From a virus (Duplodnaviria; Caudoviricetes): 44,649 bases of DNA. The notes under the pieces are model-generated. The model searched no databases, was not told where the DNA came from, and saw only the letters and a program-made list of their open reading frames with translations. Location: positions 1 to 44,649 of the IMG/VR virus record IMGVR_UViG_3300017754_003785; one strand, given 5' to 3'. Of the stretch, positions 4,699 to 31,260 are shown piece by piece (positions within the stretch are counted from its first letter, which is position 1; the number at the start of each line of letters is the position of its first letter). The translations under genes and the position numbers were made by a program.

Positions 4699-4936
4699 GA
4701 GAGCGATCCACTATCGAGGCGACTCGCTCTGTAAAGCCGGGGCTAGAAGCGGACAGACGACTTCCGAACTGACGGAGGTCTCCTGTATGAACTGCCTTAC
4801 GAGAGAATTGAAGGGGCTGAAGGAATATGAAAGCGACCTCAGGAGCAAGCTCATCGACGCGAGCGGCGAAGCCCGCGCGGTCCAGGTCCTCATCGACAAG
4901 CTCGAAGAAGAGCGGAACCCGCGCGGTCCCGGCTAA
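4691..4936 (+). CDS. Hypothetical protein (H/C metal-binding motif plus coiled coil)
   Basis: AAGGAG SD, ATG 4691; H...C...CMNC. Confidence 0.5.
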   Translation: MGRRAIHYRGDSLCKAGARSGQTTSELTEVSCMNCLTRELKGLKEYESDLRSKLIDASGEARAVQVLIDKLEEERNPRGPG

Positions 4937-5525
4937 GAAGAAGCCGGTGACGAGGAAGGTAGAACGCCTCGCCTTCGTTTACGATACGGAGACCACCGGC
5001 CTGATCGAGAACCGGTCCATGCCGCTCGACCGGCTCCCGGAAGTCATCGAGTTCTACGGCGAGACCATCGATCTGAACTCGGGTCGCAAGCTCGATGAGT
5101 ATCATACGCTGATCAAGCCCGCGAAGCCGCTCTCCCCGATGCCGGTCGACTTCAAGAGTAAGAAGACGATCACCGATATCACCGGGATAACGAACGAAAT
5201 GCTGAAGAACGCCCCGCTGTTCAAGGGCGTGTCCGAGAAAATCTTCTCCCTGATCGAGTCGGCCCCGCTCGTTATCGCGCAGAATGCTTCCTTCGACCGC
5301 GATATGCTCGATATCGAGGCCGAACGTCTTTCGCTTCGGATCGAATGGCCTCCGGTGATCTGCTCCATCGAGCAGACCGTTCACCTTAAGGGCTATCGCC
5401 TCGGCCTCGGTGCGCTCCACGAACTCCTCTTCGGGAAGACGTTCTCGGGAGCGCATAGGGCGAAGGCCGACGTTGAAGCCCTATCCCGTTGTTGTGTAGA
5501 ACTCGCGAAGAGGGGAGAACTCTGA
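4827..5525 (+). CDS. dnaQ: DEDDh 3'-5' exonuclease, DNA polymerase III epsilon-like
   Basis: YDTETTGL (ExoI), AQNASFD (ExoII), HRAKAD (ExoIII); coupled to dnaE by TGATG; start codon uncertain. Confidence 0.8.
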   Translation: MKATSGASSSTRAAKPARSRSSSTSSKKSGTRAVPAKKKPVTRKVERLAFVYDTETTGLIENRSMPLDRLPEVIEFYGETIDLNSGRKLDEYHTLIKPAKPLSPMPVDFKSKKTITDITGITNEMLKNAPLFKGVSEKIFSLIESAPLVIAQNASFDRDMLDIEAERLSLRIEWPPVICSIEQTVHLKGYRLGLGALHELLFGKTFSGAHRAKADVEALSRCCVELAKRGEL

Positions 5526-8422: not shown

Positions 8423-8506
8423 GTCTTTCATCCGTGTAGTTCGTAGGTTAGCTAGGTGGGCTCTCCCGATTGTGGGAAAGAGAAAGAAAGTAAGGAAGGA
8501 CAGAAC

Positions 8507-8812
8507 ATGGCAGCGAAGAAGAAGGCCGCGAAGAAGAAGGTTGCGGCGAAGAAGAAGGCTCCGGCAAAGATGAAGTACGGCGCGGACATGCAGATCGTGT
8601 CGGTCGGCGAGAACCCGCGCCGGGAAGGAAGCGCGGCGCACGCGCGGTTCGCGGACATGGCCAAGTATGTCGGCAAGAACCCCGGCTGCACGGTCGCCGA
8701 CGTGATCAAGAACACGAGCGCGAAGCGCGGCCTGATCACGAAGAGCATCGACGCCGGCATCCTGAAGACCAAGAAGGTGAAGCCCGCAGCGCCGGCAGCC
8801 GCCGAAGCCTAG
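8507..8812 (+). CDS. Basic histone-like putative DNA-binding protein
   Basis: AAKKKAAKKKVAAKKKAPAK N-terminus; SD upstream of ATG 8507. Confidence 0.7.
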   Translation: MAAKKKAAKKKVAAKKKAPAKMKYGADMQIVSVGENPRREGSAAHARFADMAKYVGKNPGCTVADVIKNTSAKRGLITKSIDAGILKTKKVKPAAPAAAEA

Positions 8813-11522: not shown

Positions 11523-11992
11523 TCATGGCAGCTACCGGACACCGCCCCGATAAGCTCGGCGGTTATGGCGACGAAGTAACCGCTCGCCTCATCGCGGTTG
11601 CGGAGAAAGGTCTACTGAGGCTAAAGCCAAGCGGGATGATCGTCGGTATGGCGCTCGGCTTCGACCTCGCCGTTGCGGCGGCCTGCGTTCGCCTCGATGT
11701 CCCGTTCAAGGCGGCGGTGCCGTTCCCCGGACAGGAGGCGCGTTGGCCCGAGGCCACGAAGGAGCGCTATCGACTCCTCCTAAGCCGAGCCGAGGAAGTC
11801 GTCTTCGTGAGCGATGGCGTCTATGCCGCTTGGAAGATGCACAAGCGAAACGAATGGATGGTCGACCGCTCATCCGCCGTCGTCGCCCTCTATGACGGAA
11901 GCCGTGAAGGCGGGACGTTCCGTTGCGTCGAGTACGCGAGGAAGAAGAAGCGCGAAGTTCACAACCTCTGGGGAGATTGGATCAATGGTTAG
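11519..11992 (+). CDS. SLOG family YspA/DUF1273-like protein
   Basis: TGHRP, GMALGFD, PFPGQ..RW, RNEWMVD, GGT..CVEYA motifs. Confidence 0.85.
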   Translation: MIMAATGHRPDKLGGYGDEVTARLIAVAEKGLLRLKPSGMIVGMALGFDLAVAAACVRLDVPFKAAVPFPGQEARWPEATKERYRLLLSRAEEVVFVSDGVYAAWKMHKRNEWMVDRSSAVVALYDGSREGGTFRCVEYARKKKREVHNLWGDWING

Positions 11993-12722
11993 TCTTATCC
12001 ACGTCGTCGATACCGAGACGACCGGACTCGGGCGCGAAGGCGAAGCGAAGCCACGCGTTGTCGAACTCGCTTCGGTCGCTCTCGCGCTCGGAAAGTCTCG
12101 TTGGGGGATCGTTCGCGGGATCGGTGGAGTCCGTTCGTCGCTTATCAATCCCGGAGTCCCTATTCCTCCGGAAGCTCGCGGCGTTCATCATATTTCGGAC
12201 GAAGACGTTTCCGATGCGCCTTCGTTCGAAGACGCGCTCAAGACGATGGCGAAGCCCGAGCCTCACGCGAGAGCCGCCCATAACTCGGAATACGACCGGC
12301 AGTTCTTCCCGGAAGGTTCGTGGATTTGCACGTATCGATGCTCTCGCCAAATCTGGCCTGACCTCGCCAGCCACGGAAATCAGACAATCCGCTACTCGAT
12401 CCCCGGTCTGAACGAAAAGATTATGAAGGACGTTCGGGCGACGCACGCCATGAGACTTCCTCCTCATCGCGCGCTTCCCGACGCTTGGGTAACGGCGCAT
12501 ATCCTTCTAGAGCTTCTAGCGGTTCGCTCCGCCGAAGAGCTGATCGAGCTTACGAAACAACCGATCCTCCTGAAGACCGTTCGCTTCGGTAAGCATCGAG
12601 GAGTTCTCTGGTCGGACGTTCCGCGAGACTACCTCTCTTGGCTACTCCGGAAGGAAGAAGGGAAGCCGGGAGACTTCGACGCCGATACGGTCTTCACGGC
12701 GAAGTACTGGTGGACGCGATGA
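11985..12722 (+). CDS. Exodeoxyribonuclease X-like DEDDh exonuclease
   Basis: VDTETTGL, AHNSEYD, HRALPDA, plus C-terminal FGKHRG...VPRDYLSWL (DUF3820-like). Confidence 0.85.
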   Translation: MVSLIHVVDTETTGLGREGEAKPRVVELASVALALGKSRWGIVRGIGGVRSSLINPGVPIPPEARGVHHISDEDVSDAPSFEDALKTMAKPEPHARAAHNSEYDRQFFPEGSWICTYRCSRQIWPDLASHGNQTIRYSIPGLNEKIMKDVRATHAMRLPPHRALPDAWVTAHILLELLAVRSAEELIELTKQPILLKTVRFGKHRGVLWSDVPRDYLSWLLRKEEGKPGDFDADTVFTAKYWWTR

Positions 12723-13270
12723 GCGGGACGGACGGCGGCCTACGGTCGATCTACAACGCGCATCTTCGCGGTATGCATCTTCTCCCTATCGAGACCGGGA
12801 TGACGGTCCAAGGCGTACCCGATACCAACGGGTGCGACGAGGGCGTCGAGTTCTGGATCGAGAACAAGCGGGTCTACGGTAAGACCATCCGGATGCGGCC
12901 CAAGCAGGTCGGCTGGCATACTCGTCGCGCCATCGCTGGCGGACGATCATTCATCGCCGCGAGACGAGAGACACGCGAAGGTCCACGGCTTGGCGAAGCG
13001 GTCGATGAGCTTTATCTCTTCTTCGGTGTTCAGGCGCGTGAGGTACTGGAGAGAGGCATCGATGTGAAGGCGATACTCATCGAGACTGGAGGACCTTCGC
13101 GATGGAACTGGAAGGCTATCCGCGAGGTCCTTCTCTTCGCTCCGCTCCCGAAATGGCGCGAGGTTATCGCCCCGGTCTCCGGGGGATCGATTAGACGCCT
13201 TCCGGGAGCCCCGGCCGGGAGCCCCGGCCCGGCCCCTACTAGGCCCCGATCCCCGGCCGGGAGTCGATAA
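12719..13270 (+). CDS. PD-(D/E)XK nuclease (VRR-NUC / resolvase-like)
   Basis: GVPD...WIENK...RPKQVGWH...GG. Confidence 0.7.
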   Translation: MSGTDGGLRSIYNAHLRGMHLLPIETGMTVQGVPDTNGCDEGVEFWIENKRVYGKTIRMRPKQVGWHTRRAIAGGRSFIAARRETREGPRLGEAVDELYLFFGVQAREVLERGIDVKAILIETGGPSRWNWKAIREVLLFAPLPKWREVIAPVSGGSIRRLPGAPAGSPGPAPTRPRSPAGSR

Positions 13271-13973
13271 AACGCCTGTTTTGGTCGTGGTTTCGTTTTA
13301 ATGCCGATGGCGTAAGGCTTTTAGCCTTGTCGTTTTTGGGCCTTTCCTGAGCTCCGGGAGGGCTCCCGGACCGGGGCGGCCCGGACCCCTACTATATATG
13401 GGGCCTAAAAAACCGGTTTCCGGGCCTTCCTTCCTTCCTCTTTCTTTCTATAATGGGCCTACCTCCGGCGGCAACGTCGGAGGGGCGGGGCCTCCGGGCC
13501 TCGCTGGTTCCCCTCCGAAACTTAGGGCCGCGTGGAGGCCGCTGGAGGGAACCGGGGAAAAATTAGAAGCGCCCTGCTAGGCTCTTCGAACCGCTTGCAG
13601 CCAAAACGGCGAGGTTCGATCAGCACTCTAGGCGGCCCCGGCTAAAGAACCCTAGACCCTATCGCCCCTTCTGGGCCGATGGCTCTGCTCTCCTTTCCTC
13701 GTCCTCCTCTGTAGGCCGAAAGGAGAAGCGGCCTCGGCGTTCGGATCGGGACGGGTCTAGCCTCTTCCTATCCCGCCCCAAGTCGCTGAATAGATAAGTC
13801 CTGAAATCGTTCCCCCGTCGCTCTAGTCGCCGGAACGATAGAGGCTCTTAAGCGCGGAGGCCGATCCCCGTCCGAGTGCGAGACGCGGAGTTTAGCGAAG
13901 AGAGATCGATGCATAACGAACCGATGCGCTCTATGAAGCCGTCGCGACTGAGGTTATGCTACTAACTTAAAAG

Positions 13974-14036
13974 AGGAAGCTCTAACGGTGAGAGCGTCGA
14001 TACTAACGACGCTCGATCCGCCAGCGCTTCCGCTGG
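13974..14036 (+). ncRNA. Intergenic pseudoknot RNA motif, copy 1
   Basis: AGGAAGCTCTAACGGTGA-GAGCGTCG ATACTAA CGACGCTC-GATCCG-CCAGCGCTTCCGCTGG. Confidence 0.8.
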
Positions 14037-14057
14037 GTAACGAAGAAGGAGAAGAAC

Positions 14058-14252
14058 ATGGCTTATCGGATTTCATCCAAGTCGTATCGTAATGCTCAGA
14101 AGGTTCTGCACACGCCGATGTGGTCGCTCTACTCGGCGAAGGCTCATAAGGAAGCCGAACAGCTCGTCGAGAACTACGATCAGGGCGCGACGTTCGAACG
14201 TAAGCCGAAGGAGTTCAACCCGCAGCCGAACATCGGCGGCAAGAAGCGCTAA
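14058..14252 (+). CDS. Hypothetical protein
   Basis: AAGGAG SD directly after motif copy 1. Confidence 0.7.
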   Translation: MAYRISSKSYRNAQKVLHTPMWSLYSAKAHKEAEQLVENYDQGATFERKPKEFNPQPNIGGKKR

Positions 14253-14257
14253 CGATC

Positions 14258-14319
14258 AGGAAGCTCTAACGGTAGCCGACACGATCCGTCGTGTCGGTCT
14301 CCGCCAGCGCTTCCGCTGG
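14258..14319 (+). ncRNA. Intergenic pseudoknot RNA motif, copy 2 (divergent hairpin)
   Basis: AGGAAGCTCTAACGGTA-GCCGACACGA TCCG TCGTGTCGGT-CTCCG-CCAGCGCTTCCGCTGG. Confidence 0.8.
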
Positions 14320-14338
14320 GTAACGAAGGAGAAAGACC

Positions 14339-14593
14339 ATGACGACGTTCGAAGAGTTCAAGGCATCGCGTAAGTACGTCTCGAACCTCGCGCCGTACAC
14401 GAGCGGCTTCGCGGAGTTCGCCGGATACCTCTACCTCGACGCCTTCTATATCGGCGTGCCGAACGAAGGGTCGACCAGCGCTCATTACGAAGTGAGCCTC
14501 GCCGGAGACGACCGGACATTCGGGACCATCGAGGAAGCCGAGCGCTTCCTCTGGGAAGAGTTCGCCGATAGCGAGCTTAACGACGAGAACTAG
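14339..14593 (+). CDS. Hypothetical acidic protein
   Basis: SD after copy 2; its TAG overlaps copy 3. Confidence 0.7.
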   Translation: MTTFEEFKASRKYVSNLAPYTSGFAEFAGYLYLDAFYIGVPNEGSTSAHYEVSLAGDDRTFGTIEEAERFLWEEFADSELNDEN

Positions 14594-14649
14594 GAAGCTC
14601 TAACGGTGAGAGCGGCTGCGGCCGCTCGATCCGCCAGCGCTTCCGCTGG
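14592..14649 (+). ncRNA. Intergenic pseudoknot RNA motif, copy 3
   Basis: Variable hairpin GAGCGGC TGCG GCCGCTC. Confidence 0.8.
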
Positions 14650-14669
14650 ATAACGAAGGAGAGACGACG

Positions 14670-14960
14670 ATGGCTAAGGATTATTCGAAGCGGTCCGAAG
14701 AAGAAGCGAAGACGTTCGAACTGCTCGACGGCTTCTTAGAGGTAAAGGCGAACTGGTCGCCGTCGACCGCGCTCGCGGCTCGGGTCTTCCGGGTTATGTA
14801 TTACGCGATGATCGACATCGATCAGATCAACCGGATCGGAGCGGCACTTAACAACGTCGAGACGGTCGACCTCACCGAAGCGGTCAAAGCACTCCACCAA
14901 GCGAAGGTCCTTCGTTCTCTCGGTCGCGATGGTCGTCGCTACTACGAAGTCAACTACTAG
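14670..14960 (+). CDS. Hypothetical protein
   Basis: SD after copy 3; its TAG overlaps copy 4. Confidence 0.7.
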   Translation: MAKDYSKRSEEEAKTFELLDGFLEVKANWSPSTALAARVFRVMYYAMIDIDQINRIGAALNNVETVDLTEAVKALHQAKVLRSLGRDGRRYYEVNY

Positions 14961-15020
14961 GAAGTTCTAACGGTGAGAGCGGCGCTTCGGTGCCGCTCGA
15001 TCCGCCAGCGCTTCCGCTGG
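14959..15020 (+). ncRNA. Intergenic pseudoknot RNA motif, copy 4
   Basis: 5' strand GGAAGT; hairpin GAGCGGCGC TTCG GTGCCGCTC. Confidence 0.8.
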
Positions 15021-15038
15021 GTAACGAAGGAGACGACG

Positions 15039-15266
15039 ATGGCGAAGACGTATTACACGCTCGTGACGCGAGACGACGATAAGAGCCCGTGGGCGATCCA
15101 CTTCGGCGACTACGACCGCGCGACCGTCGCGGACGAAGCAGACGACCTCTACGACGAAGGGCTCGGCGTTCGCCGGAAGAACCTCAAGATCGTTAAGAGC
15201 GGCGACCGACAGGCCGATATCGACGCGGTGGTTCGTCGCCTTAACGAAGAGGAGAGCGCGCGATGA
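15039..15266 (+). CDS. Hypothetical protein
   Basis: AAGGAG SD; ATG 15039 (MAKTYY...). Confidence 0.7.
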   Translation: MAKTYYTLVTRDDDKSPWAIHFGDYDRATVADEADDLYDEGLGVRRKNLKIVKSGDRQADIDAVVRRLNEEESAR

Positions 15267-15400
15267 CGTTCGATCTGAAAGCGCTATGTGACGCGATACG
15301 GCTCGAATGTGAATTCGCCGCGTCTCGAAAAGGAACCCGGAGCCGACCGATCAAGACGAGACGAGGCTGGTACAATCGGTACGGATATCTGATCGCTTAG
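15263..15400 (+). CDS. Small hypothetical protein (45 aa)
   Basis: ATGA overlap, GAGGAG SD; fills the gap. Confidence 0.45.
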   Translation: MTFDLKALCDAIRLECEFAASRKGTRSRPIKTRRGWYNRYGYLIA

Positions 15401-15404
15401 GAGG

Positions 15405-15605
15405 ATGAACATTATGAACGAACTGTCTCAGGCCATCTACCTTCAGGTCATCTACGTCTTCACCAACGTCTTTCTGGCTCGCTTCAGCAAGAGCGAGATC
15501 GTCAGAGAGTTGAATGTCAGTGACGGCATCGTACGTGAGTTTCATCGCGTGATGAACAAGCGCCACCCCAACAATCCGTGGCTCTACTACGGCACCCGGT
15601 ACTAG
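15405..15605 (+). CDS. Hypothetical protein
   Basis: AGGAGG SD; start could be 15405 or 15414. Confidence 0.6.
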   Translation: MNIMNELSQAIYLQVIYVFTNVFLARFSKSEIVRELNVSDGIVREFHRVMNKRHPNNPWLYYGTRY

Positions 15606-15617
15606 GAGGACCGTCTG

Positions 15618-15713
15618 ATGTGGCTCGCTGTTCAACTACTCTCGCCGTGGATCGCGGCAGCTCTCGTCCTCTGGCTTATCGGAGACCCGGAGAACGACGA
15701 GCGGAACTACTAG
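15618..15713 (+). CDS. Small membrane protein (31 aa)
   Basis: AGGAGG SD; MWLAVQLLSPWIAAALVLWLIGDPENDERNY; its TAG overlaps copy 5. Confidence 0.55.
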   Translation: MWLAVQLLSPWIAAALVLWLIGDPENDERNY

Positions 15714-15769
15714 GAAGCTCTAACGGTGAGAGCGGCTACGGCCGCTCGATCCGCCAGCGCTTCCGCTGG
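15712..15769 (+). ncRNA. Intergenic pseudoknot RNA motif, copy 5
   Basis: Hairpin GAGCGGC TACG GCCGCTC; an extra CGCTC...GAGCG hairpin lies before the SD. Confidence 0.8.
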
Positions 15770-15819
15770 ACGCTCCGATCCCGAGAGGACGAGCGGGTAC
15801 TTCGAAATAGGAGACTACT

Positions 15820-16161
15820 ATGAACGCCAAGAAGAACAACGTCGCCGTCGTCGCCAACGTCGTCAAGGCTTCGGCCGAGAACACGAAGAAGGTCGCGGTC
15901 AAGAAGGTCGCGGTCAAGAAGGTCGCGAAGAAGACGGCGAAGAAGGCCGCGTCGGACAAGGTTATGAAGGCGCGGGCCACCCGCCACGCCGTTAAGGTCG
16001 GCGGCAAGAAGTACGATAGCGCCTGGAGCGCCTTCAAGTCGCTGAAGCTCGGGACCGCCGCCCAGTGTGCCCGGTTTCGCAAGTCGTTGAAGGCGAGCGG
16101 TCGGGCCGTGTTCGAGAACGGCAAGCGTTCCGTTACCTTTCAGATCGTTAAGGAGGCTTAG
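15820..16161 (+). CDS. Histone-like basic protein
   Basis: KKVAVKKVAVKKVAKKTAKK repeats plus a small C-terminal domain. Confidence 0.7.
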   Translation: MNAKKNNVAVVANVVKASAENTKKVAVKKVAVKKVAKKTAKKAASDKVMKARATRHAVKVGGKKYDSAWSAFKSLKLGTAAQCARFRKSLKASGRAVFENGKRSVTFQIVKEA

Positions 16162-16164
16162 TCA

Positions 16165-16677
16165 ATGAAGGAAGTTCGCTTTCAAGACATGTTTCGCTGG
16201 GGGATGAGCCGGGACGTTCCGGCCATCCTTTCTTTTCCATCCGGGCCGATAATCAACCTCGGCTCCGGTCGAAAGGCCCTTCCCTACGAAACGACCAACC
16301 TCGATCTTCCCGATTGGGATGCTCGACGAGATACGATCCCGTTCGGAGACGAAGAAGTGGCGGGAGTGGTCGCTTATCACTTCTTCGAACATCTCGACGG
16401 CTCGACCGCTACGAAAGTCGTCGAGGAAATAAATCGAGTTCTGAAGCCGGGCGGTTCCGCGCTTATCGTGGTGCCGTACTATAATTCGCAACTACAGCAT
16501 CAGAACCTCGATCACAAATCGTCGTGGACGGAAGAGACGTTCAAGAACCTCTTCACCGACACTACATATGATCGGGAAGGCGGACGCATCGACTGGCGCC
16601 TTAAGATCGGTTTCCAATTGATCTGCGGGATCGTCGAGAGAAACATCTGTCTCGCTACGCAACTCGTGAAGCTCTAA
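16165..16677 (+). CDS. Class I SAM-dependent methyltransferase (Methyltransf_11-like)
   Basis: INLGSG, IPFGDE, HFFEHL, RVLKPGG motifs. Confidence 0.8.
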   Translation: MKEVRFQDMFRWGMSRDVPAILSFPSGPIINLGSGRKALPYETTNLDLPDWDARRDTIPFGDEEVAGVVAYHFFEHLDGSTATKVVEEINRVLKPGGSALIVVPYYNSQLQHQNLDHKSSWTEETFKNLFTDTTYDREGGRIDWRLKIGFQLICGIVERNICLATQLVKL

Positions 16678-16729
16678 CGGTGAGAGCCCCGACGCGATCC
16701 GGGGCTCGATCCGCCAGCGCTTCCGCTGG
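16668..16729 (+). ncRNA. Intergenic pseudoknot RNA motif, copy 6
   Basis: Begins GAAGCTCTAA inside the methyltransferase gene end; hairpin GAGCCCCG ACGCGATC CGGGGCTC. Confidence 0.8.
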
Positions 16730-16743
16730 GATAGGAGAGACGA

Positions 16744-17091
16744 ATGTATGAACGCTATAAGACGACGAGCGGTTCGATCACGGTCAAGAACGGCGACGAG
16801 GGACCGCGCCACGACCCGTACTCCTTCGTCGAGTACACGGTAGAGAGGAAAGGAAAGAGGAAGACGACGATCCATCTCGGCCTCGTCGTCTGGTGCAAGG
16901 TCGAAGGACGGCCGGTCAAGAAGACGATGAACGAGGCGAAGGCGCGCGAGCGGTTCGCTCGATACGTCGGATGGCCTCTCGAAGAAGTCGAGCGTGCCGT
17001 CGGCCTTGCCGACCGGAGGCGCGAGCGGTCATACGACCTTTCCGGTATCCGCGCGGCCGAACGCGCTGCCGGATGGGACGCTTCGCCGTAG
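16744..17091 (+). CDS. Hypothetical protein
   Basis: AGGAG SD after copy 6. Confidence 0.7.
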   Translation: MYERYKTTSGSITVKNGDEGPRHDPYSFVEYTVERKGKRKTTIHLGLVVWCKVEGRPVKKTMNEAKARERFARYVGWPLEEVERAVGLADRRRERSYDLSGIRAAERAAGWDASP

Positions 17092-17151
17092 GAAGCTCTA
17101 ACGGTGAGAGCCTCGATGGTACGAGGCTCGATCCGCCAGCGCTTCCGCTGG
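17090..17151 (+). ncRNA. Intergenic pseudoknot RNA motif, copy 7
   Basis: Hairpin GAGCCTCG ATGGTA CGAGGCTC. Confidence 0.8.
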
Positions 17152-17166
17152 GATAAGGAGAGATAG

Positions 17167-18138
17167 ATGACGAACCAACAGCAGATGCCGACCGAGAAAG
17201 TGATCGAGCGTATCAAGAAGCTCCTCGCCCTCGCCGATAAGAACAAGAACTCGTCGGCCGCCGAAGCCGAGAGCGCTGCGGCGAAGGTACAGGAACTCCT
17301 TCAGGACTACGGCCTGTCGCTCGCGCAGGTCACGGCTTCGGAGCGGAACGCCGACGCGATGACCGACCGCGAGAAGGCCGAGACGGATCGGCGCGCGATG
17401 TACAAGTGGCAGCGCGAGCTTATGGCCGCTCTCGCGAAGGGGAACTTCTGCATCCACTTCGTGCAGGAGAAGCTCGTCGAGCGGACGCTCAAGAGCCGCC
17501 GACATCTCGGGCTCAAGAAGTCGACCTTCCACGTTCTGATCGGGCGGACGATCAACATCCAAGGAACGATTGCCCTTTACGACTATCTCGTCAAGTCGAT
17601 TGGGCGCGAGGCCGCGCGTCACGGATACGACCACGGGACCTCCGACAACGCGCTCTTCTTTGACGGCGCGGTCTCGCGTCTCTCTGAACGTCTTTTCGCC
17701 CAGCGCGCGAAGCGGGAGCGCGAAGAAGCCGAAGCGGAGGCCGCTCGTCGGAAGGCGACCGCCGCGACGGGTAGCGCTACTCCCGGCACGGGCCTTGTCC
17801 TCCTCTCGGATGTCTACGGCTCGGAAGAAGACCTCAACGCCGATCTTCGCTATGGCCTCCCGGCCGGAACGACGGCGGCCCGGAGGAAAGGCCGCGAGGC
17901 GTCTGAGCGCGAGCGTCGCCTCGTCGCTGAACGCCTCGAAAGCGAAGGCGTCGATTGGGTCGAAGCGTTCTATCGGAGCCACGGCTATAGCGAAGAGGAC
18001 GCGAAGAAGGCCGCTCGCGAATACTACAAGAAGAACGCTCGCGAGAACGCGAAGAACGCGAAGAAGGGAGAAGCGTTCAGCGTCGGACGGGTTGCCGGCG
18101 ACAAGATCGGCCTCGACCTCCAAGTCGAGAAGAAGTGA
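17167..18138 (+). CDS. DUF2786 domain-containing protein
   Basis: IERIKKLLALA...EAESAAAKVQELLQDYGLS N-terminal motif. Confidence 0.75.
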   Translation: MTNQQQMPTEKVIERIKKLLALADKNKNSSAAEAESAAAKVQELLQDYGLSLAQVTASERNADAMTDREKAETDRRAMYKWQRELMAALAKGNFCIHFVQEKLVERTLKSRRHLGLKKSTFHVLIGRTINIQGTIALYDYLVKSIGREAARHGYDHGTSDNALFFDGAVSRLSERLFAQRAKREREEAEAEAARRKATAATGSATPGTGLVLLSDVYGSEEDLNADLRYGLPAGTTAARRKGREASERERRLVAERLESEGVDWVEAFYRSHGYSEEDAKKAAREYYKKNARENAKNAKKGEAFSVGRVAGDKIGLDLQVEKK

Positions 18139-18199
18139 GGAAGCTCTAACGGTGAGAGCCCCGACGATCCGGGGCTCGATCCGCCAGCGCTTCCGCTGG
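18138..18199 (+). ncRNA. Intergenic pseudoknot RNA motif, copy 8
   Basis: Hairpin GAGCCCCG ACGATC CGGGGCTC. Confidence 0.8.
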
Positions 18200-18218
18200 A
18201 ATAGAAAGGACGTAGTCA

Positions 18219-18467
18219 ATGGCCATCCAGTTGTACGATCTGTCGGTCGCCCCGAAGATCGATAAGAACGACCTCTCGTTTGTGATGCGCGCTCCGCTGC
18301 CGGTGATCGCGCGCTACCTTCGCTTACACATCGACGCGGTTCGTCGCATCGAACGGGAGACGGAGAACACGACACTCCCCTGCGTCCTCTACGGCCCGAG
18401 CGGGACGGACGAAGTACACGTCGTCTGGCGGCCGATCTATTCGCTTTCGACCACCGCCGTTCGATAG
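18219..18467 (+). CDS. Hypothetical protein
   Basis: AAGGA SD after copy 8. Confidence 0.65.
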   Translation: MAIQLYDLSVAPKIDKNDLSFVMRAPLPVIARYLRLHIDAVRRIERETENTTLPCVLYGPSGTDEVHVVWRPIYSLSTTAVR

Positions 18468-18479
18468 GAGGACACGATT

Positions 18480-19106
18480 ATGGGAAAGCGTTTTTCGTTC
18501 GACATCGCCAAGGCGATCCCCGCCGCGTGGGACTTCCTCTGGGCCGATAACCTTAAGGATCGCGCGAAGCAGGAGAAGGACCACCCGGATGGCGACTTCG
18601 GAAAGTACGGTCGCCGCTGGTACACGCGGACGTTCTATCTCTGCGCCGCCGACATCGTTCGGCAGGTTCGCTCCTTCGCTTACGAGACCTCGCACGGCCT
18701 TGAGTGGGGGACCAACGGCGTGCGCGGCCCCGACTACGGCATCCGGATTTCCGGCGACCTCGAAAGTGCCGTCAGAGATTGGCTCCTTCGGACGAAGGAC
18801 GGTCATAACTTCAGTCGCGGCCATATCTCCGGTATGCGCTTCCGACCGAAGGGAGCGCCGCTCGGGCCTTCGGAGGAGGATACGATAGAGAAGAAGGCGA
18901 AGCCGAAGCGGCCAGCGCCGATCCACTTCAGCCGTAGTGGTTTCGGTCGTCCGCTCTGCACGGCAGTATCGAGCGGGAACCGGTTCTCGTTCCGGCAGTC
19001 GAAGGCGCGCGTCCGGTCTAAGTGGGAGGAGGTCAACTGCAAGCGGTGTCTCGGGCTCAAGGCTCACGCCCTCGCTCAGCCTCGCGCTAACGAAAAAGCT
19101 CTCTAG
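18480..19106 (+). CDS. Hypothetical protein (C-terminal H/C metal-binding motif)
   Basis: AGGAGG SD; H...LC...VNCKRC. Confidence 0.7.
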   Translation: MGKRFSFDIAKAIPAAWDFLWADNLKDRAKQEKDHPDGDFGKYGRRWYTRTFYLCAADIVRQVRSFAYETSHGLEWGTNGVRGPDYGIRISGDLESAVRDWLLRTKDGHNFSRGHISGMRFRPKGAPLGPSEEDTIEKKAKPKRPAPIHFSRSGFGRPLCTAVSSGNRFSFRQSKARVRSKWEEVNCKRCLGLKAHALAQPRANEKAL

Positions 19107-19166
19107 GAAGCTCTAACGGTGAGAGCGGCGCTTCGGTGCCGCTCGATCCGCCAGCGCTTCCGCTGG
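19105..19166 (+). ncRNA. Intergenic pseudoknot RNA motif, copy 9
   Basis: Hairpin identical to that of copy 4. Confidence 0.8.
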
Positions 19167-19182
19167 TATAGGAGAGAACTCG

Positions 19183-19593
19183 ATGACGAAATTCAAGATA
19201 GGCGATAAGGTCCGCGTCAAGCTCGCTGGCGGGAAAGGCGTCGGAGAAACGCTCTGGGAAATCGTTCGCATCGTTCCCGGACGGAACCAGACGGCGTGTT
19301 ATATACGAGAGGCCGGGACCAATCACGCATCGCAACGGTTCGACACGTCGCTACTCGTTATCGAACCGCCGAGCGATCTTCGGTTGCTCGTCGCGAAGTT
19401 CTTGGCGACGTACTGGGAAGAGGGCGATGGACATCCGCCGCCGGCATTCATTCGTGAAGCCGAGGAAGCGGTCAAAGACCTCACTCCCGAAGAACTCGCG
19501 AAGGCGCAGGTCAGGCGCCATTTCCGAACCACCGAAGAGGTAGAAGGCATCAGCCCGATCTATTATCGCCTCGCGGTCTATACGAAGAACTAG
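19183..19593 (+). CDS. Hypothetical protein (KOW/SH3-like N-terminus)
   Basis: KFKIGDKVRVK start; SD after copy 9. Confidence 0.65.
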   Translation: MTKFKIGDKVRVKLAGGKGVGETLWEIVRIVPGRNQTACYIREAGTNHASQRFDTSLLVIEPPSDLRLLVAKFLATYWEEGDGHPPPAFIREAEEAVKDLTPEELAKAQVRRHFRTTEEVEGISPIYYRLAVYTKN

Positions 19594-19653
19594 AAAGCCC
19601 TAACGGTGAGAGCGGCGCTCCGGCTCCGCTCGATCCGCCAGCGCTTTCGCTGG
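19592..19653 (+). ncRNA. Intergenic pseudoknot RNA motif, copy 10 (compensatory variant)
   Basis: AGAAAGCCCTAACGGTGA-GAGCGG CGCTCCGGCT CCGCTC-GATCCG-CCAGCGCTTTCGCTGG. Confidence 0.8.
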
Positions 19654-19666
19654 AGCAGGAGAAGAG

Positions 19667-19942
19667 ATGAATACCCTACAGAAGAAAGTCGAAAAACTCC
19701 GCAAGCAGATGCGGCTCCGTCCTCTCACGAGTCACGGCGTTCGCTTCGAGATCGGACGGAAGGCGATCCAGCTTCGCGAAGAAAAGCGCGAGGAAGAGGC
19801 TCGGGCTCTTGAGAACCTCCTGACGGACGACGACTACATTCGTCTTCGTCTTCGGAGGAATATGGCCATCCAGATCGCCGACGAGGCGGCCATCCAACTG
19901 ATGACCTCGTTCCCCGAGGCGTACCCGGAAAGGATCGCATAG
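19667..19942 (+). CDS. Hypothetical protein
   Basis: AGGAG SD after copy 10. Confidence 0.65.
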   Translation: MNTLQKKVEKLRKQMRLRPLTSHGVRFEIGRKAIQLREEKREEEARALENLLTDDDYIRLRLRRNMAIQIADEAAIQLMTSFPEAYPERIA

Positions 19943-20012
19943 ATGCGGTGGATCGTCGCCGTCCTCATCGTCCTTCTCGTCTCGTCTTCCTTCACCGATG
20001 GAGAGTCCTCCG

Positions 20013-21101
20013 ATGGTCGCCAAGAAGAAATCGTCATCGACACCTAAGAAGACGGCGGCTCCGGTCGTCGCTTCCGAACCGACTTTGTCCGATACTCCCG
20101 TTGGCCTCAGGGCTTGCGAAGAGTGCGGAGCCCCGGCCGGTTCCTACCATCACCCGGATTGCGTCTGGGTCATACCGAAGTTCCTCCGGTCGAACAGACC
20201 GAAGAAGAGCCCCGAAGAACTGAAGCGTCTGCTCAATACCGAGCGCGAATGGATTATGCCGAAAGCGAAGGAGTTTCAAATGCCTATCGATAAGATCACG
20301 CCGCAGGACCCGATGAAGCCAGTCCAAGTCAATCTCGTTACCGAAGCCGGTACGAGGTCGCAGTTATTCGATAACCTCGAAGCGTTCAACGACTGGTACA
20401 CGCCCGAACTCTACGTCCTTAGCGGGCAGATCGCCGACGCGAGCATCACGATCGTGACCGCCGAGACCATCGAGGTCAGGAAGAAGGCGGCTCCCGAGTC
20501 GGCCGAGGTCCGGAAGAAGGCGGCGCAGGTTGTTCGCGAGCGCGAGAGACAAGCGAAACGAGACGCGAAGGCGAAGAGGAAAGCCGAGCGCGAGGCGAAT
20601 AAGACCGCGCGAGCGAACGGCGAGACGACGCCGCGAGCGAAGAAGGAAGGCGGTGGGATTTCCGGGAGCATCGCCGTGACGGTCGGCGGGAAGTCTTACG
20701 GGACGATCAAGACCGCGCTGAAGGCTCTCGGCATCGCGGACTCCGAACGTAAGGCGCTTCGCGCTCTTCTCATCAAGGATGGGAAGGCGACCCTGAAGGG
20801 ACACGCCTTTACGCTCCGCGACGGTCTCCCGGAGAAGGCCGCCCCGGCTGCTACTCCTCCGGCCGCGACGAAGACGGAGCCGGAGAAGAAGACGCCGCGA
20901 CCGCAGATCGTGACGAACGTCGGCATCAAGAAGGCCGAACCGAAGAAGGCGAGTCCGAAGGCGACACCGAAGAAGGTAGCGGCGAAGAAGGCGAGTCCGA
21001 AGGCGAGCCCGAAGGCGGCCCCAAAGAAGGCCGCTCCGAAGGCCGCTCCGAAGGCCGCTCCGAAGAAGGTAGCGGCGAAGAAGAAGGCGGCCAAGAAGTG
21101 A
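20013..21101 (+). CDS. Basic protein with histone H1-like C-terminal tail
   Basis: PKKAAPKAAPKAAPKK repeats; N-terminal CEEC...HHPDC. Confidence 0.7.
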   Translation: MVAKKKSSSTPKKTAAPVVASEPTLSDTPVGLRACEECGAPAGSYHHPDCVWVIPKFLRSNRPKKSPEELKRLLNTEREWIMPKAKEFQMPIDKITPQDPMKPVQVNLVTEAGTRSQLFDNLEAFNDWYTPELYVLSGQIADASITIVTAETIEVRKKAAPESAEVRKKAAQVVRERERQAKRDAKAKRKAEREANKTARANGETTPRAKKEGGGISGSIAVTVGGKSYGTIKTALKALGIADSERKALRALLIKDGKATLKGHAFTLRDGLPEKAAPAATPPAATKTEPEKKTPRPQIVTNVGIKKAEPKKASPKATPKKVAAKKASPKASPKAAPKKAAPKAAPKAAPKKVAAKKKAAKK

Positions 21102-21361
21102 GCCGCAAGATCATCGGTATCCATAGCCCCACGGTCCCCTATCTCGGTAGGGGATCGAAGCGGCGGATACTCCTAGCCGTTCTCGTCGAAGACGATGGGA
21201 CGAATACTCAGGTTGCCTATCAAGGGATAGTCGACCACGAAGATGGAGAGGAGGTTGGCAGCGCTGCTGTAGCCGTATCGCTCCGGGGCTCGAAACTGAA
21301 GTACGAAGAAGCCCAGCGGCATTGGCCGTCCATCGAACGGAAGAGGTATCAGCACCAATGA
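21098..21361 (+). CDS. Hypothetical protein
   Basis: GTGA overlap. Confidence 0.55.
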   Translation: MSRKIIGIHSPTVPYLGRGSKRRILLAVLVEDDGTNTQVAYQGIVDHEDGEEVGSAAVAVSLRGSKLKYEEAQRHWPSIERKRYQHQ

Positions 21362-21609
21362 ACCTCCGAAGACTTGACCGGCTATCGGTCCCGGCCGTTC
21401 GCTACGAGTTCGTAGTGAGCGGAGCCGGCACGTTCCCTTTCGATATGCTCTCTCACGACCGGGCTTACCCGGCGAATATCGAAGAGGCGTCGAAGCTGAA
21501 CGAATACGGACCAGAGCGCCGATACGTCAAGCTCGTATCGGCGTCTTCGGTCCGCGAGTGGACTCCGCATCAAGCGGGATGGAAGACGTTCGGATGGAGG
21601 GTTGAATGA
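21358..21609 (+). CDS. Hypothetical protein
   Basis: ATGA overlap; GAGTFPFDMLSHDRAYP...WKTFGWRV. Confidence 0.6.
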   Translation: MNLRRLDRLSVPAVRYEFVVSGAGTFPFDMLSHDRAYPANIEEASKLNEYGPERRYVKLVSASSVREWTPHQAGWKTFGWRVE

Positions 21610-21968
21610 ACGACGCTGGCGTCGTCAAGGCGTACCGATCCGAAATCTTCGGCCGGATATACTGGAGGATCGTTCGAACTCCGGTCGGTCCGTATCGGTT
21701 CACTCTCGAAGAGAACGAAGACCGCGTTTGGTCTTCGAAGAAGGAACCGGCTTTCTTCAACGACATCGATATGGCGAAGAAGGAAGTCGAGAAACGGATC
21801 ATCGTCCAAGTCGCTTCGGCTTGTGACGGTATGGAGGTCCATCGAGACCAGTGGGACCTCATTCGCGAGCTTCTATCGGAGAAGCGCATCGCCGATATCG
21901 GATCGCCGCGCGGTCCCGATCAGGCTTGGAAGCGGATCGAACCGCTCCCGAGCGACGAAGAAGGATAA
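21606..21968 (+). CDS. Hypothetical protein
   Basis: ATGA overlap, GGAGG SD. Confidence 0.6.
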   Translation: MNDAGVVKAYRSEIFGRIYWRIVRTPVGPYRFTLEENEDRVWSSKKEPAFFNDIDMAKKEVEKRIIVQVASACDGMEVHRDQWDLIRELLSEKRIADIGSPRGPDQAWKRIEPLPSDEEG

Positions 21969-22032
21969 TCGAAACGCTCCTCCGGGAGCGTCCGCCGGAT
22001 ACGGCCACCCGGCGCTGACGAGATAGGCCATA
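21968..22032 (+). ncRNA. Hammerhead ribozyme, type II
   Basis: ATC-GAAA-CGCTCC TCCG GGAGCG-TC^-CGCCGG ATACGGCCAC CCGGCG-CTGACGA-GAT: complete core, all three stems, GUC triplet (cut after 21992), and a GGCC pseudoknot between loop I and the 3' tail. Confidence 0.9.
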
Positions 22033-22051
22033 GGAAGAGCAGGAGAACGAA

Positions 22052-23185
22052 ATGCAAAAGGGAATTAGCCTCGCCGACTTCGCGCGCAAGATCGAGTTCA
22101 ACCGCGATGCCCGGAAGGATTTCATCGTCGAGACCCGCAAGGGCCTCGCTATGCAGATCGACGACTATGAAGAGCCGCCCATCGGGAACGCGAAGACGCC
22201 GATCAAGAAGCGTCGGCCGGTTCTCGAACTCTACGGGACGCGGGATGCCGAGCGCTTCCCGATGCTCGATCTCGTCCACAACCAGCTCGGAACCTACGTC
22301 GGCATCCCGGCGAAGTATTACGACCGGATGCTGGAGAAGCAGCCCGACCTGTTGGCGATGAACGTCAACTCGTGGCTCAAGCACGACCTCGAACGCGAGG
22401 CCGACAAGCGGATGCTCCGCACCCTCCACGGGAACGCTCGCGGCTTCCTCTCGAACCGCTACAGCCGGATCGATAACCACGAGATCGCCGACGTTGCGCT
22501 TCCGATCCTCGCGGAGCTTCCGAACGTCAAGATCGTTTCGTGCGAGGTCACGGACAAGCGGATGTACATCCAAGCCGTCACGCCCGCTATCGAGGGCGAG
22601 ATCAAGAAGGGTGACGTGGTCCAGGCCGGAGTCCTGATCACGAACTCCGAAGTCGGCTGCGGCTCGGTCTCGGTCTCGTCGGTGATCTGGCGACTGATCT
22701 GCCTCAACGGGATGAAGGGCATGGACCGCTTCCGCGCGAACCACGTCGGCCGGAAGATCGACGACAACGAAGACCTCTGGTCGGACTCGACCCGGAAGCT
22801 CGACGATAAGCTCGTTCTCTCGAAGGTCCGCGACATGGTCAAGTCGGCGGTCGACGAGAACCGCTTCCGGAAGCAGATTGAGCACGCCCAGATGTTGACC
22901 GGCATCAAGGTCGAGAAGGACCCGCAGGCCGCCGTCGTCGTTCTCTCGCAGAAGGTCGGCGTGTCGGACGAAGAGTCGTCCGGCATCCTCAAGTCGCTGA
23001 TCGAAGGCGGTGACCTCTCCGCTTGGGGTCTCCTGAACGCCGTTACGCATCAGGCTCATACGGCGAAGAACTACGACCGCGCGGTCGAGTTCGAGGAAGC
23101 CGGTGGTCAGATGATGAACTGGGGCAAGGCCGACTGGAAGCAGGTCCTCGAAGCGACCGCGCTCGACGTTAAGAAGGCCGCCTGA
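22052..23185 (+). CDS. DUF932 domain-containing protein
   Basis: RGFLSNRYSRIDN, ITNSEVG.GS, RLICLNGM and HVG motifs. Confidence 0.8.
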   Translation: MQKGISLADFARKIEFNRDARKDFIVETRKGLAMQIDDYEEPPIGNAKTPIKKRRPVLELYGTRDAERFPMLDLVHNQLGTYVGIPAKYYDRMLEKQPDLLAMNVNSWLKHDLEREADKRMLRTLHGNARGFLSNRYSRIDNHEIADVALPILAELPNVKIVSCEVTDKRMYIQAVTPAIEGEIKKGDVVQAGVLITNSEVGCGSVSVSSVIWRLICLNGMKGMDRFRANHVGRKIDDNEDLWSDSTRKLDDKLVLSKVRDMVKSAVDENRFRKQIEHAQMLTGIKVEKDPQAAVVVLSQKVGVSDEESSGILKSLIEGGDLSAWGLLNAVTHQAHTAKNYDRAVEFEEAGGQMMNWGKADWKQVLEATALDVKKAA

Positions 23186-29512: not shown

Positions 29513-31097
29513 CGAACCGGTCCACGACCACGAAGCGGACTACGCCGCGCTTCTCAAGTCCGTGAAGGATCGCTTCGCGGAGGTATCGAAGCGTCCGCTA
29601 TTCGAGACCGATGCGGGCGACTTCAATCTGAACGGCCTGTACCTCTCGAACATCCCGCAGGAAGGAGGAGAGCGGGCGGTTCATAATTGCTCGGCCTGCC
29701 GAAACTTCCTTCATCGCTTCGGCGGTCTCGTTGTGATCGGCGAGGAAGGGAACATCGAGTCGGCCGTATGGGAACCGGCTACCGTTCCGCCGTTCTATCT
29801 CGATGCGGTCGCATCGCTGAAGTTCCGCGTCGAGTCGTCTCCGATCAAGGGGCCGTTCTATACGAGCGAAGCGGTTCTCGGGACGCCGACGACGGGAATG
29901 TGGTCGCACTTCTCCGTCGTCGCTCACTCGATCTTTCGAAGCCCGCTCCTGACCGCTCGTCAGAAGATGGCCGAGAAGCGCGAGAGCTTCCGGACGCTAG
30001 AGCGTGCGCTAGGCGAGTTCGATCCGAAGAAGATCAAGCTCGTTCTCGACATCCTCGAAGGCGGCTATCTCGACAGGTCGGAAAAGTTCGTTGCGCCGAT
30101 CCGCTGGCTCTACGATCTTCAGAGCCGGTATCTCGCGACGAAGAACCGAAGGCTCCGCTCCAACTTCGTCTGGGCCGCTCTCTCCGTCGCTCCGGAAGGT
30201 TATCTTCATCCGAGAGCATCGGTCACGGGATCGCTGATCGAGGACATCGAACGCGGCCTCTCCGTCGAAGAGGCACGGAAGCGGTTCAACGCGAAGGTCG
30301 GAGGTCTCGACTATCAGAGGCCGAAGGCCGCGCCGACGGCCGGGAACATCGAGGCGGCGGAGAAGATCGCCGAACGCCTCGGGATCGCGCGTTCACTCGA
30401 AAGGCGTTTCGCGCGGATCGAAGAGGTTCCCAAGCTCTGGGAGCCCAAGGCGAAGGAGACGAAGAAAGAAGGCGGCATCTTCTCTCACCTGTCGAAGAGC
30501 GAAGAACCGACAGTCGCGAGCATCGGGTCCGTACCGATCACGTGGGAGAAGTTCGCTCGCGAGGTTCTTCCGAAGACCGAGACGATCTCTGTTCTTATCC
30601 CGAATGCGCGATGCAACTTCATCGGTATGACGACGGCGCTATACCCGGACGCGCCTCCGCTCATCCGATGGGATCGCGAGGAAGAGAGGAACCCGTTCTC
30701 GTGGTACGTCTACAACAGTGGATCACGACCGCAGTATTGGAACCTTTCGCCGGGCTGGGCATCGGTCAGCGCGGTCGTCGCTCTACCGAACCTCTGGGGG
30801 AACTCGCCTCAGCCGCAACACGGCGAAGGCGCTATCCTCGTTATCGATGGAGCGCGCGATGTCGTGAAACGGGAAGGGAGCGGCAACGTGATCTTCCCCG
30901 AGCACGTTCGAAGCGAACTCCATCCGGTTCGCTCGACCATCGAAGCGTTTTCTTCGAAGGCTACGCTTCACGGAGCGAAGGAGGCGACCGCCTGCGGGAT
31001 CGATCTTCGTAAGCAACGTCAGTCGGCGATTAATCTCGTCATCGCCGTCCGGATCGGAGACCTCCGCGTGACGTACCGTCTCGACCGCTGGGACTGA
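29472..31097 (+). CDS. Large hypothetical phage protein
   Basis: 541-aa ORF with HNCSACRNF motif; followed by a terminator. Confidence 0.75.
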   Translation: MAKKKATPKASVRSEPVHDHEADYAALLKSVKDRFAEVSKRPLFETDAGDFNLNGLYLSNIPQEGGERAVHNCSACRNFLHRFGGLVVIGEEGNIESAVWEPATVPPFYLDAVASLKFRVESSPIKGPFYTSEAVLGTPTTGMWSHFSVVAHSIFRSPLLTARQKMAEKRESFRTLERALGEFDPKKIKLVLDILEGGYLDRSEKFVAPIRWLYDLQSRYLATKNRRLRSNFVWAALSVAPEGYLHPRASVTGSLIEDIERGLSVEEARKRFNAKVGGLDYQRPKAAPTAGNIEAAEKIAERLGIARSLERRFARIEEVPKLWEPKAKETKKEGGIFSHLSKSEEPTVASIGSVPITWEKFAREVLPKTETISVLIPNARCNFIGMTTALYPDAPPLIRWDREEERNPFSWYVYNSGSRPQYWNLSPGWASVSAVVALPNLWGNSPQPQHGEGAILVIDGARDVVKREGSGNVIFPEHVRSELHPVRSTIEAFSSKATLHGAKEATACGIDLRKQRQSAINLVIAVRIGDLRVTYRLDRWD

Positions 31098-31121
31098 TCC
31101 GACCCGGCCGAACCGCTAAAA

Positions 31122-31175
31122 GAAAAGGCCCCTCCGGGGCTCCCGTTCTGGGAGCTTCGGTAGGGGCCTTTTTTC
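31122..31175. terminator. Likely bidirectional intrinsic terminator
   Basis: GAAAAGGCCCCT CCGGGGCTCCC GTTCT GGGAGCTTCGG T AGGGGCCTTTTTTC, between convergent gene blocks. Confidence 0.8.
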
Positions 31176-31236
31176 GTTCCTACGGGGCGACGGGCCGGGG
31201 AAGGTCCGGGAGTAGCGGACGGGTCCGGGAAAGGCC

Positions 31237-31260
31237 CCTAGCGGCCTCCCTAGCGGCCTC
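31237..31260. repeat. 12-bp tandem duplication
   Basis: CCTAGCGGCCTC x2. Confidence 0.8.

Follow-up and report, generated by a model that had tools for sequence, protein, structure and literature searches.

An RNA element of 58–64 nt occurs in ten copies, all on the + strand, between small genes of the virus record IMGVR_UViG_3300017754_003785 (Duplodnaviria; Caudoviricetes), of which the whole stretch of 44,649 nt was analysed and is called the window below. The element is a real, uncatalogued RNA family. Its sequence features make it probable, in our estimate, that RNase III of the host cuts each copy once, so that the upstream mRNA would gain a hairpin at its new 3′ end and the downstream mRNA one at its new 5′ end, and it is likely not a new self-cutting RNA, as an initial annotation of the window had considered. 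The element family, the base-level prediction of the cut and a test of that prediction outside the family are new here.

The copies lie at 13974–14036, 14258–14319, 14592–14649, 14959–15020, 15712–15769, 16666–16729, 17090–17151, 18138–18199, 19105–19166 and 19592–19653 (copies 1 to 10, +), and the cut is predicted after positions 14020, 14303, 14633, 15004, 15753, 16713, 17135, 18183, 19150 and 19637, respectively. They divide an array of small co-oriented open reading frames (ORFs; 14058..19942, +), mostly without family matches, into units of one to three genes. The 3′ half of the element (19 nt, at most three mismatches, both strands) occurred 10 times where 0.05 occurrences were expected (0/100 shuffles reached 10). 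Folding z-scores of the individual copies against shuffles ranged from −1.8 to −5.4, and the minus strand folded lower in 9/10 copies. The upstream stop codon overlaps or abuts the lower arm of the element in 8/10 copies. It ends at 14252 for copy 2, on the first paired base (14593) for copy 3, at 14960 for copy 4, at 15713 for copy 5 (the stop of a 31-aa ORF) and at 18138, 19106 and 19593 for copies 8, 9 and 10; an upstream methyltransferase ORF crosses the lower arm of copy 6 and has its stop at 16677. Copy 1 opens the array, with no convincing gene before it, and copy 7 precedes a DUF2786/DUF7168 gene (17167–18138). The distance from the 3′ end of a copy to the next start codon was 13–21 nt, and 50 nt for copy 5, which is followed by an extra leader hairpin (15771–15795) and then the ribosome-binding site (RBS).

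The initial annotation had described ten copies of a structured + strand RNA at stop/RBS junctions. All ten are present, far above chance, nine with the starts that it gave and copy 6 with an in-register start at 16666 instead of 16668. Several of its observations can be seen directly in the sequence: the middle hairpin varies yet pairs, with a different stem in copy 2 (where a 2×2 loop replaces UGA/GAU); CGG/CCG encloses UGA/GAU in 9/10 copies; six copies (2, 3, 4, 5, 9 and 10) have UNCG loops; and the lower helix has a U·G wobble in copy 4 and a compensatory pair in copy 10. The first pair of this helix is broken in copy 6, and the stem of copy 10 contains a C·U mismatch. Window base 19620 is C but T in the contigs of all three runs compared, which gives copy 10 the loop UUCG; the C may be an error or a minor variant.

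Each copy is made up of a six-nucleotide segment A (GGAAGC), a five-nucleotide linker, hairpin P2 (three pairs, a small loop and a variable stem), segment B (CCAGC), segment A′ (GCUUCC) and segment B′ (GCUGG), and B pairs with B′ to form P3. In copy 1, the long hairpin described below has its base at 13975, P2 spans 13986–14020 and P3 spans 14021–14036. Pattern scans and a covariance model added 17 copies, found in 11 other viral records (n = 27 in total). One homolog, L362c, came from reading a junction by eye, and membership of the divergent L290, L345, L353 and L362c among the 17 is a matter of judgement. Two doubtful loci (L361 and L340) and the near-duplicates L156–L160, L295, L310, L363, L357 and L359 were left out of the 27. 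The search patterns fixed the P2 core, and its conservation is therefore inflated. A contig of run X2, outside the 27, appears to carry a variant with a fully changed, seven-pair lower helix.

Other searches were mostly negative. Exact or near patterns found no match among viral contigs, and the array had no blastn match among cultured phages. A metagenome scan (33/64 parts) gave 123 loci, of which 118 were chance and five came from a close strain. A viral pattern scan (20/64 parts) gave 120 loci, three of them real, and a further viral scan yielded 119 loci, none of them a new copy. None of 38 matches in a genome scan looked real. The covariance model found no copy in any of nine polymerase- or DUF932-related records, nor in the cultured Rhizobium phage RHph_Y60, whose tail tube is 36% identical. 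Rfam models gave no match to the copies at E ≤ 10 (window 13400–22200) and, at E ≤ 1, only hammerheads and one weak unrelated match at the 11 homolog loci. By these model searches, the element belongs to no Rfam ribozyme family, in agreement with the initial annotation. No description of the element was found in the literature searched (mostly open-access; the supplementary motif lists of two comparative screens, from 2015 and 2017, fell outside it).

The pairing of A with A′ covaries strongly across the 27 copies. By position, the pairs of this lower helix form in 21, 26, 25, 25, 22 and 26 of the copies, with at least four of six pairs in 26/27, and a cross-record shuffle gave 57.8 expected pairs against the 92/108 observed, a value reached in 0/20,000 shuffles. 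P2 also covaries, its first pair included in L285b, L317b and L362c. P3 has five pairs in 23/27 copies, shows compensatory changes in L326, L317a and L362a, and is missing or broken in 4/27. The GGAAGC/GCUUCC helix persists in the copies without P3. A and the linker together face B and A′ without a gap, A′ always starts directly after B, and spare loop bases are always 3′ of A′. Opposite CCAGC, the five linker positions pair in 5, 24, 27, 13 and 2 of 27 copies. A linker U thus has the A of B as its partner in every copy; in L345 the pair is swapped to A-U, and the new B sequence there keeps both partners.

Judged from this alignment, the covariation of GGAAGC with GCUUCC is explained without a pseudoknot, as the base of a long irregular hairpin that competes with P3. 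In isolated copies the minimum-energy fold was this nested long hairpin, 0.4–14 kcal/mol below P2 plus P3 (the programs used handle nested structures only), and the linker can base-pair with segment B, the 5′ side of P3. Folding was mixed when flanks were included (see below), which together with the nested fold in isolation makes the element a two-state RNA. In a straight stacked pseudoknot, by a rough geometry estimate, 5 nt would have to span ~40 Å or 0 nt >20 Å, and a pseudoknot may form only with P2 folded back alongside the stack. Only the linker A (26/27) and one loop U (27/27) are unpaired and nearly invariant, both partly fixed by the search patterns, and variant copies could be dead. 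The complementarity of GGAAGC and GCUUCC noted in the initial annotation is thus real and covaries, and its coexistence with the 3′ hairpin as a pseudoknot was an interpretation. The linker UCUAA is conserved in 9/10 window copies, as had been stated, but is not wholly unpaired, one U in it having a partner in every copy. The proposed compact pseudoknot with conserved unpaired catalytic bases is not supported, given that the helix persists without P3 and that the UGA/GAU loop is replaced in 3/27 copies.

The invariant letters, read earlier as a catalytic or ligand- or protein-binding core, fit RNase III determinants. For the Escherichia coli enzyme, a half-site of 11 pairs beyond the cut is described, of which one suffices, with A-U or U-A at position 2 of the proximal box and no G-C next to the cut (PMC1540722). 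With the invariant U-A set at position D′, it is the 3′ strand that would be cut, at CCG^CCAG, which is the P2/P3 boundary, and the lower arm is then exactly 11 positions long (six plus five in ungapped register), so that the helix beyond the cut has the length of at least 11 positions on one side. A-U or U-A stands at D′ in 27/27 copies and in 65/86 counts of Table S4 in PMC6212723. The pair next to the cut is A·C in 24 copies, A-U in two and C·C in one, and G-C or C-G in none; the two central pairs are G-C or C-G in 25/27 and 26/27. The three sequence features of an RNase III substrate are thus present, and cleavage is predicted from them. Registers that would cut the P3 loop or the 5′ strand were rejected on the basis of the bond cut in the minimal substrate (PMC1540722).

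We scored the pairs with the symmetrised E. coli in vivo counts of the same Table S4, which may not represent the enzyme of the host, in a re-implementation of the method of PMC6212723 with an assumed log base. The best lower half-site coincided with the first base of P3 in 22/27 copies. Lower half-site scores ranged from −11.1 to −14.9, compared with −12.1 ± 1.5 for the half-sites of the table itself, and the upper half-site was weaker. Against a threaded null (random pairs in the same pattern), P was ≤ 0.05 in 18/27 copies and in 8/17 outside the window. With 14 registers compared and copies that are related to one another, these values are no more than suggestive. The predicted products fold as P2 (upstream) and P3 (downstream) in 10/10 window copies, and each downstream product begins with a six-pair P3 and has its RBS free. 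At standard state the nicked duplex is more stable than the two free pieces by 0–3.7 kcal/mol, and the products would be expected to separate at cellular concentration.

The coincidence of cut and hairpin was also found outside the family, which is a stronger test than the threaded null within it. In L026 and L027, records of a polymerase relative with an unrelated two-state junction sequence, the best of nine registers fell on base 1 of the 3′ hairpin for 4/4 elements, equivalent to about two independent sequences. In a scan of 42 loci, whose hairpin filter was modelled on the copies, a hairpin started exactly at the predicted cut in 8/36 non-family junction-like sites, compared with 0–2 coincidences at six other offsets and 1/120 at other sites. 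The eight sites span four lineages (L013, L026/L027, L326 and L362). Within the window the scan returned 16 sites, namely the 10 copies and six others, with 10 of 11 on the + strand.

Several results weigh against cleavage by RNase III as proposed. By the full 24-position score, a register shifted one base earlier does better in 19/27 copies, and at the chosen register 23/27 pass the lenient threshold of PMC6212723 and 0/27 its strict one. The proximal box of the window copies has two adjacent A·C mismatches and two pairs left, its third position is paired in 13/27 copies, and L362a and L317b score poorly (−14.9 and −14.2). The scoring matrix comes from E. coli, and the enzyme of the host may differ. 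Across records, linker/CCAGC pairing is weakly above shuffle (53/90 versus 46.5; 426/20,000), and copy 8 of a closely related strain contains a mismatch with no compensating change. With 60–70 nt of flanks, the probability of the long hairpin ranged from 0.02 to 1.00 and was <0.5 in 6/10 copies, so the long fold would have to act during transcription or in only part of the RNA population. The four elements of L026/L027 have C-G next to the cut, an in vitro RNase III antideterminant. No RNase III domain was detected in any of five phage records searched. Finally, the copies are related, the homolog patterns fixed the core, and both the register and the scan filter were chosen after the copies had been seen.

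In the mechanism that we propose, the element, lying between a stop codon and the next RBS, would first fold as the long irregular hairpin, and host RNase III would then cut it once, at CCG^CCAG. The lower arm (six pairs plus the five-nucleotide linker against CCAGC, 11 positions) would serve as one RNase III half-site, with the invariant U-A as proximal-box position 2, the A·C mismatch adjoining the cut and G-C/C-G as the two central pairs. Above this arm, the G-C pair and the U·U/G·A/A·G loop would spoil the second half-site, so that only the 3′ strand is cut. The GCUGG strand at the 3′ end would then form P3 and displace the upstream piece. This would leave P2 at the 3′ end of the upstream message and P3 at the 5′ end of the downstream one, both messages probably being protected from decay; single cuts leaving stabilising 3′ hairpins are documented in PMC3867540. 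A ribosome terminating on the overlapping stop would favour P3 and may gate the cut.

The two folds could also operate without a cut, a terminating ribosome melting the lower arm into P2 plus P3 and thereby tuning downstream initiation or blocking 3′ exonucleases. Such a switch would account for the upstream stop at the lower arm in 8/10 window copies; blocking the upstream strand raised P3 to 0.97–1.00 in 10/10, and in the P3-less L290 and L362c the long hairpin reaches the Shine-Dalgarno (SD) region. In copies with P3, however, the RBS lies outside both folds, the distance from P3 to SD varies from 0 to 36 nt with extra hairpins in some, and the stop overlap may be economy, since hammerheads overlap stop codons likewise. 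We regard the uncut switch as unlikely, as it leaves the invariant U-A, the A·C and the coincidence of the cut with P3 unexplained. Slightly less likely still is a new small self-cleaving ribozyme in which P3 displaces the linker, the upstream helix stays and P2 packs on the pseudoknot, interchangeable with hammerheads for splitting early mRNA. New classes were discovered in just such gene contexts (PMC6765202), the element occupies the same slot as hammerheads in 3/14 element-bearing records, both helices covary, CCA and U-N-A are conserved in sequence, the phage encodes a PNKP-type phosphatase, and copy 1 may be near the transcript start, where a 5′-OH end would be useful. Yet P3 is lost or broken in 4/27 copies and the UGA/GAU loop in 3/27, no invariant unpaired G or C is left, spare loop bases always come after the paired loop strand, on its 3′ side, which is compatible with the nested fold, and the lower helix extends into the 3′ strand of P3 in L285a, L287a and L292. 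The spans of a straight stacked pseudoknot are strained by our rough estimate, and no Rfam ribozyme matched at E ≤ 10.

Cutting and capping by another nuclease seems very unlikely, whether by a phage enzyme, by Mini-III or by RNase P, for which P2 would be an acceptor-like stem with RCCA after it. CCA follows P2 in 24/27 copies, P3-less ones included, RNase P is reported to cut long phage hairpins with RCCA (PMC10731613), and the window represents only ~64% of the genome. Set against this, the leader is paired with RCCA or lies opposite it, which the same source describes as a strong antideterminant for RNase P, CCA is absent in 3/27 copies and buried in P3 in the alternative fold, and neither an RNase III domain (5/5 phage records) nor a nuclease match among the array ORFs was found. 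A pseudoknot acting as a roadblock to a 5′-to-3′ exonuclease, which would yield stable 5′ ends without an endonucleolytic cut, is highly improbable: it requires a pseudoknot that is impossible in 4/27 copies, no exonuclease-resistant RNA (xrRNA) model of Rfam matched at E ≤ 10, and the lower helix pairs the upstream stop region instead of ringing it. In its favour, the upstream strand would run into a pseudoknot stack halfway along it, and viral xrRNAs reportedly remodel from hairpin to pseudoknot (10.1101/262683). An mRNA processing device, the nuclease site that the initial annotation had listed first among its alternatives, remains the most likely reading. Also rejected were the linker as a −35 box (the hairpin length varies), an integron attC site (no integrase among 74 ORFs scanned; UNCG loops and G·U pairs favour a + strand RNA) and an outer helix in L287a (promoter-like junctions have this small hairpin after them as well).

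The window, a 44.6-kb virus record that is ~64% complete, includes genes for a DnaE-type polymerase and a long tail. Two runs from freshwater metagenomes, one of which may be where the record came from, contain most of the array, and among the sequencing runs containing the array sequence no RNA run was listed. The nearest cultured tail tubes are those of Rhizobium and Pseudomonas phages (28–37% identity). No nuclease match was found among the ORFs of the array. A sigma-70 scan gave 0 promoters, and terminators were at chance level. An extended −10-like motif at 15368..15376 (+) is weak, with two matches versus 1.1 expected (not above chance), and falls in a junction region without the element. 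Such a motif, followed by a leader hairpin and RBS, is repeated at element-free junctions (L287 10916–12833; L363), and a weak look-alike lies at 13957–13965, directly 5′ of copy 1. Further upstream, ~700 nt at 13180–13970 contain no convincing gene, GC-rich short repeats and many strain differences (run X2), and are possibly a genome end, origin or early promoter region. Genes for a PNKP-type phosphatase, a nucleotide pyrophosphohydrolase and a SLOG protein lie 5′ of the array. Two separate genes encode polymerase exonuclease subunits (4827–5525 and 11814–12722). Lys/Ala-rich repeats occur in three ORFs (8456–8812, 15820–16161 and 19998–21101) and presumably resemble histone-like DNA-binding tails.

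Junctions of related records hold other repeated sequences. The second two-state family lies at L026 14930–14990, 17320–17383 and 17780–17846 and at L027 17100–17165 and 17500–17561. Divergent junction elements share arrays with true copies in L326 (3165–3252 and 5290–5350, +) and L362 (near 3110 and 1625–1688, −); the one at L326 3165–3252 has its three-pair helix swapped and a UGA/AAU loop kept. L013 (2700–20100) and L014 contain at least 10 long near-perfect hairpins of unrelated sequence whose scores are RNase III-like on both strands, many apparently inside genes, e.g., the polymerase gene. A common junction hairpin of 14–15 pairs with a CGGGAA loop (L285 11822–11888, +; L292 ~4750–4815, −) occurs near copies and a hammerhead. 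Other short repeated junction or promoter-like words were seen in polymerase relatives (L025 14346–19235; L029 2266–5363, in both orientations; L020 1419–3804; L035 15305–19197).

A type II hammerhead ribozyme lies at a later stop/RBS junction of the window (21967..22032, +; Rfam RF02276, 46.7 bits, gathering score 37), before a DUF932 gene (22052–23185). Its GUC ends at 21992, where a cut is predicted to give two products that each carry a hairpin; the loop of its stem I has complementarity to the 3′ tail. In the window, G003 and G006, neighbouring junctions are occupied by type II hammerheads. They were matched in 3/14 element-bearing records, each a few junctions away, and in 3/7 polymerase relatives without the element. 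Hammerhead clusters at small-gene junctions of polymerase relatives were seen at L031 9309–11830 (+), L019 16479–19262 (+) and G020 30205–31240, the L031 hammerheads, four in number, scoring below the Rfam gathering score. In these arrays, promoter-like sites, hammerheads and the element all have the same leader downstream of them, which suggests that all three make a new 5′ end. In these phages, self-cutting hammerheads likely do the job proposed for the element, at junctions of the same type.

If this is true, phages can punctuate an early operon by either of two interchangeable devices, a self-cleaving hammerhead or an RNase III site whose product hairpins are built in, both occupying the same slot and yielding the same kind of ends. 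It would argue that phage hammerhead clusters, whose purpose is left open in PMC6765202, serve to produce mRNAs of gene size whose ends are protected. The element would also provide a compact 60-nt insulator part, and a predicted RNase III cut at the first base of an alternative hairpin would be a rule that separates two-state junction hairpins and apparent pseudoknots from true ribozyme candidates. Should the cut prove protein-free, the element would be a new ribozyme class.

In comparison with known small ribozymes, the element shares the small size and phage gene-junction context of twister, twister-sister, pistol, hatchet and HDV-like RNAs. Pistol likewise has a six-nucleotide hairpin loop that pairs. 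We take the helix order of the element to differ from the cores of all five, and their covariance models gave no match at E ≤ 10 in window 13400–22200 or at E ≤ 1 in the 11 homolog loci. Like clustered type II hammerheads (RF02276; PMC3088659), the element occupies stop-to-RBS positions flanking single genes or short blocks, in the same arrays, and its predicted products carry a hairpin on each new end. Unlike them, it has no hammerhead core, NUH site or Rfam score: the copies gave no match to RF02276 or its clan at E ≤ 10, whereas the true hammerhead scores 46.7. The bases after P3 vary between copies, unlike a hammerhead core, and the UGA/GA beside a G-C pair resembles hammerhead domain II superficially. 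The predicted cut is protein-dependent and would leave a 5′ phosphate, as opposed to 5′-OH. The element resembles non-tRNA substrates of RNase P (pre-SRP RNA, phage C4 RNA and the hisCD hairpin; PMC10731613) in its long hairpin followed by RCCA with G at a possible +1. It differs in that the leader pairs with RCCA, pairs +3 to +5 are non-canonical and CCA is absent in 3/27 copies; the unpaired leader and free 3′ RCCA of an RNase P substrate were not found.

The closest likeness is to RNase III sites. The R sites, including R1.1, originate from T7. As in the phage early-mRNA sites described for R1.1 (PMC1540722) and SP82 (PMC4838370), an irregular two-turn hairpin stands between early genes. 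With the R1.1 minimal substrate (PMC1540722), the element shares the 11-position half-site, A-U or U-A at position 2 and the absence of G-C next to the cut; an internal loop is expected to limit cutting to one strand, and the upstream product would keep a 3′ hairpin (PMC3867540). Unlike these sites, the element has its half-site in the lower arm, and its 3′ strand has a second partner, with which it is predicted to form a hairpin at base 1 of the downstream product and so release the upstream piece. It further differs in occurring as ten near-identical repeats that are interchangeable with hammerheads and whose cut is predicted from the sequence.

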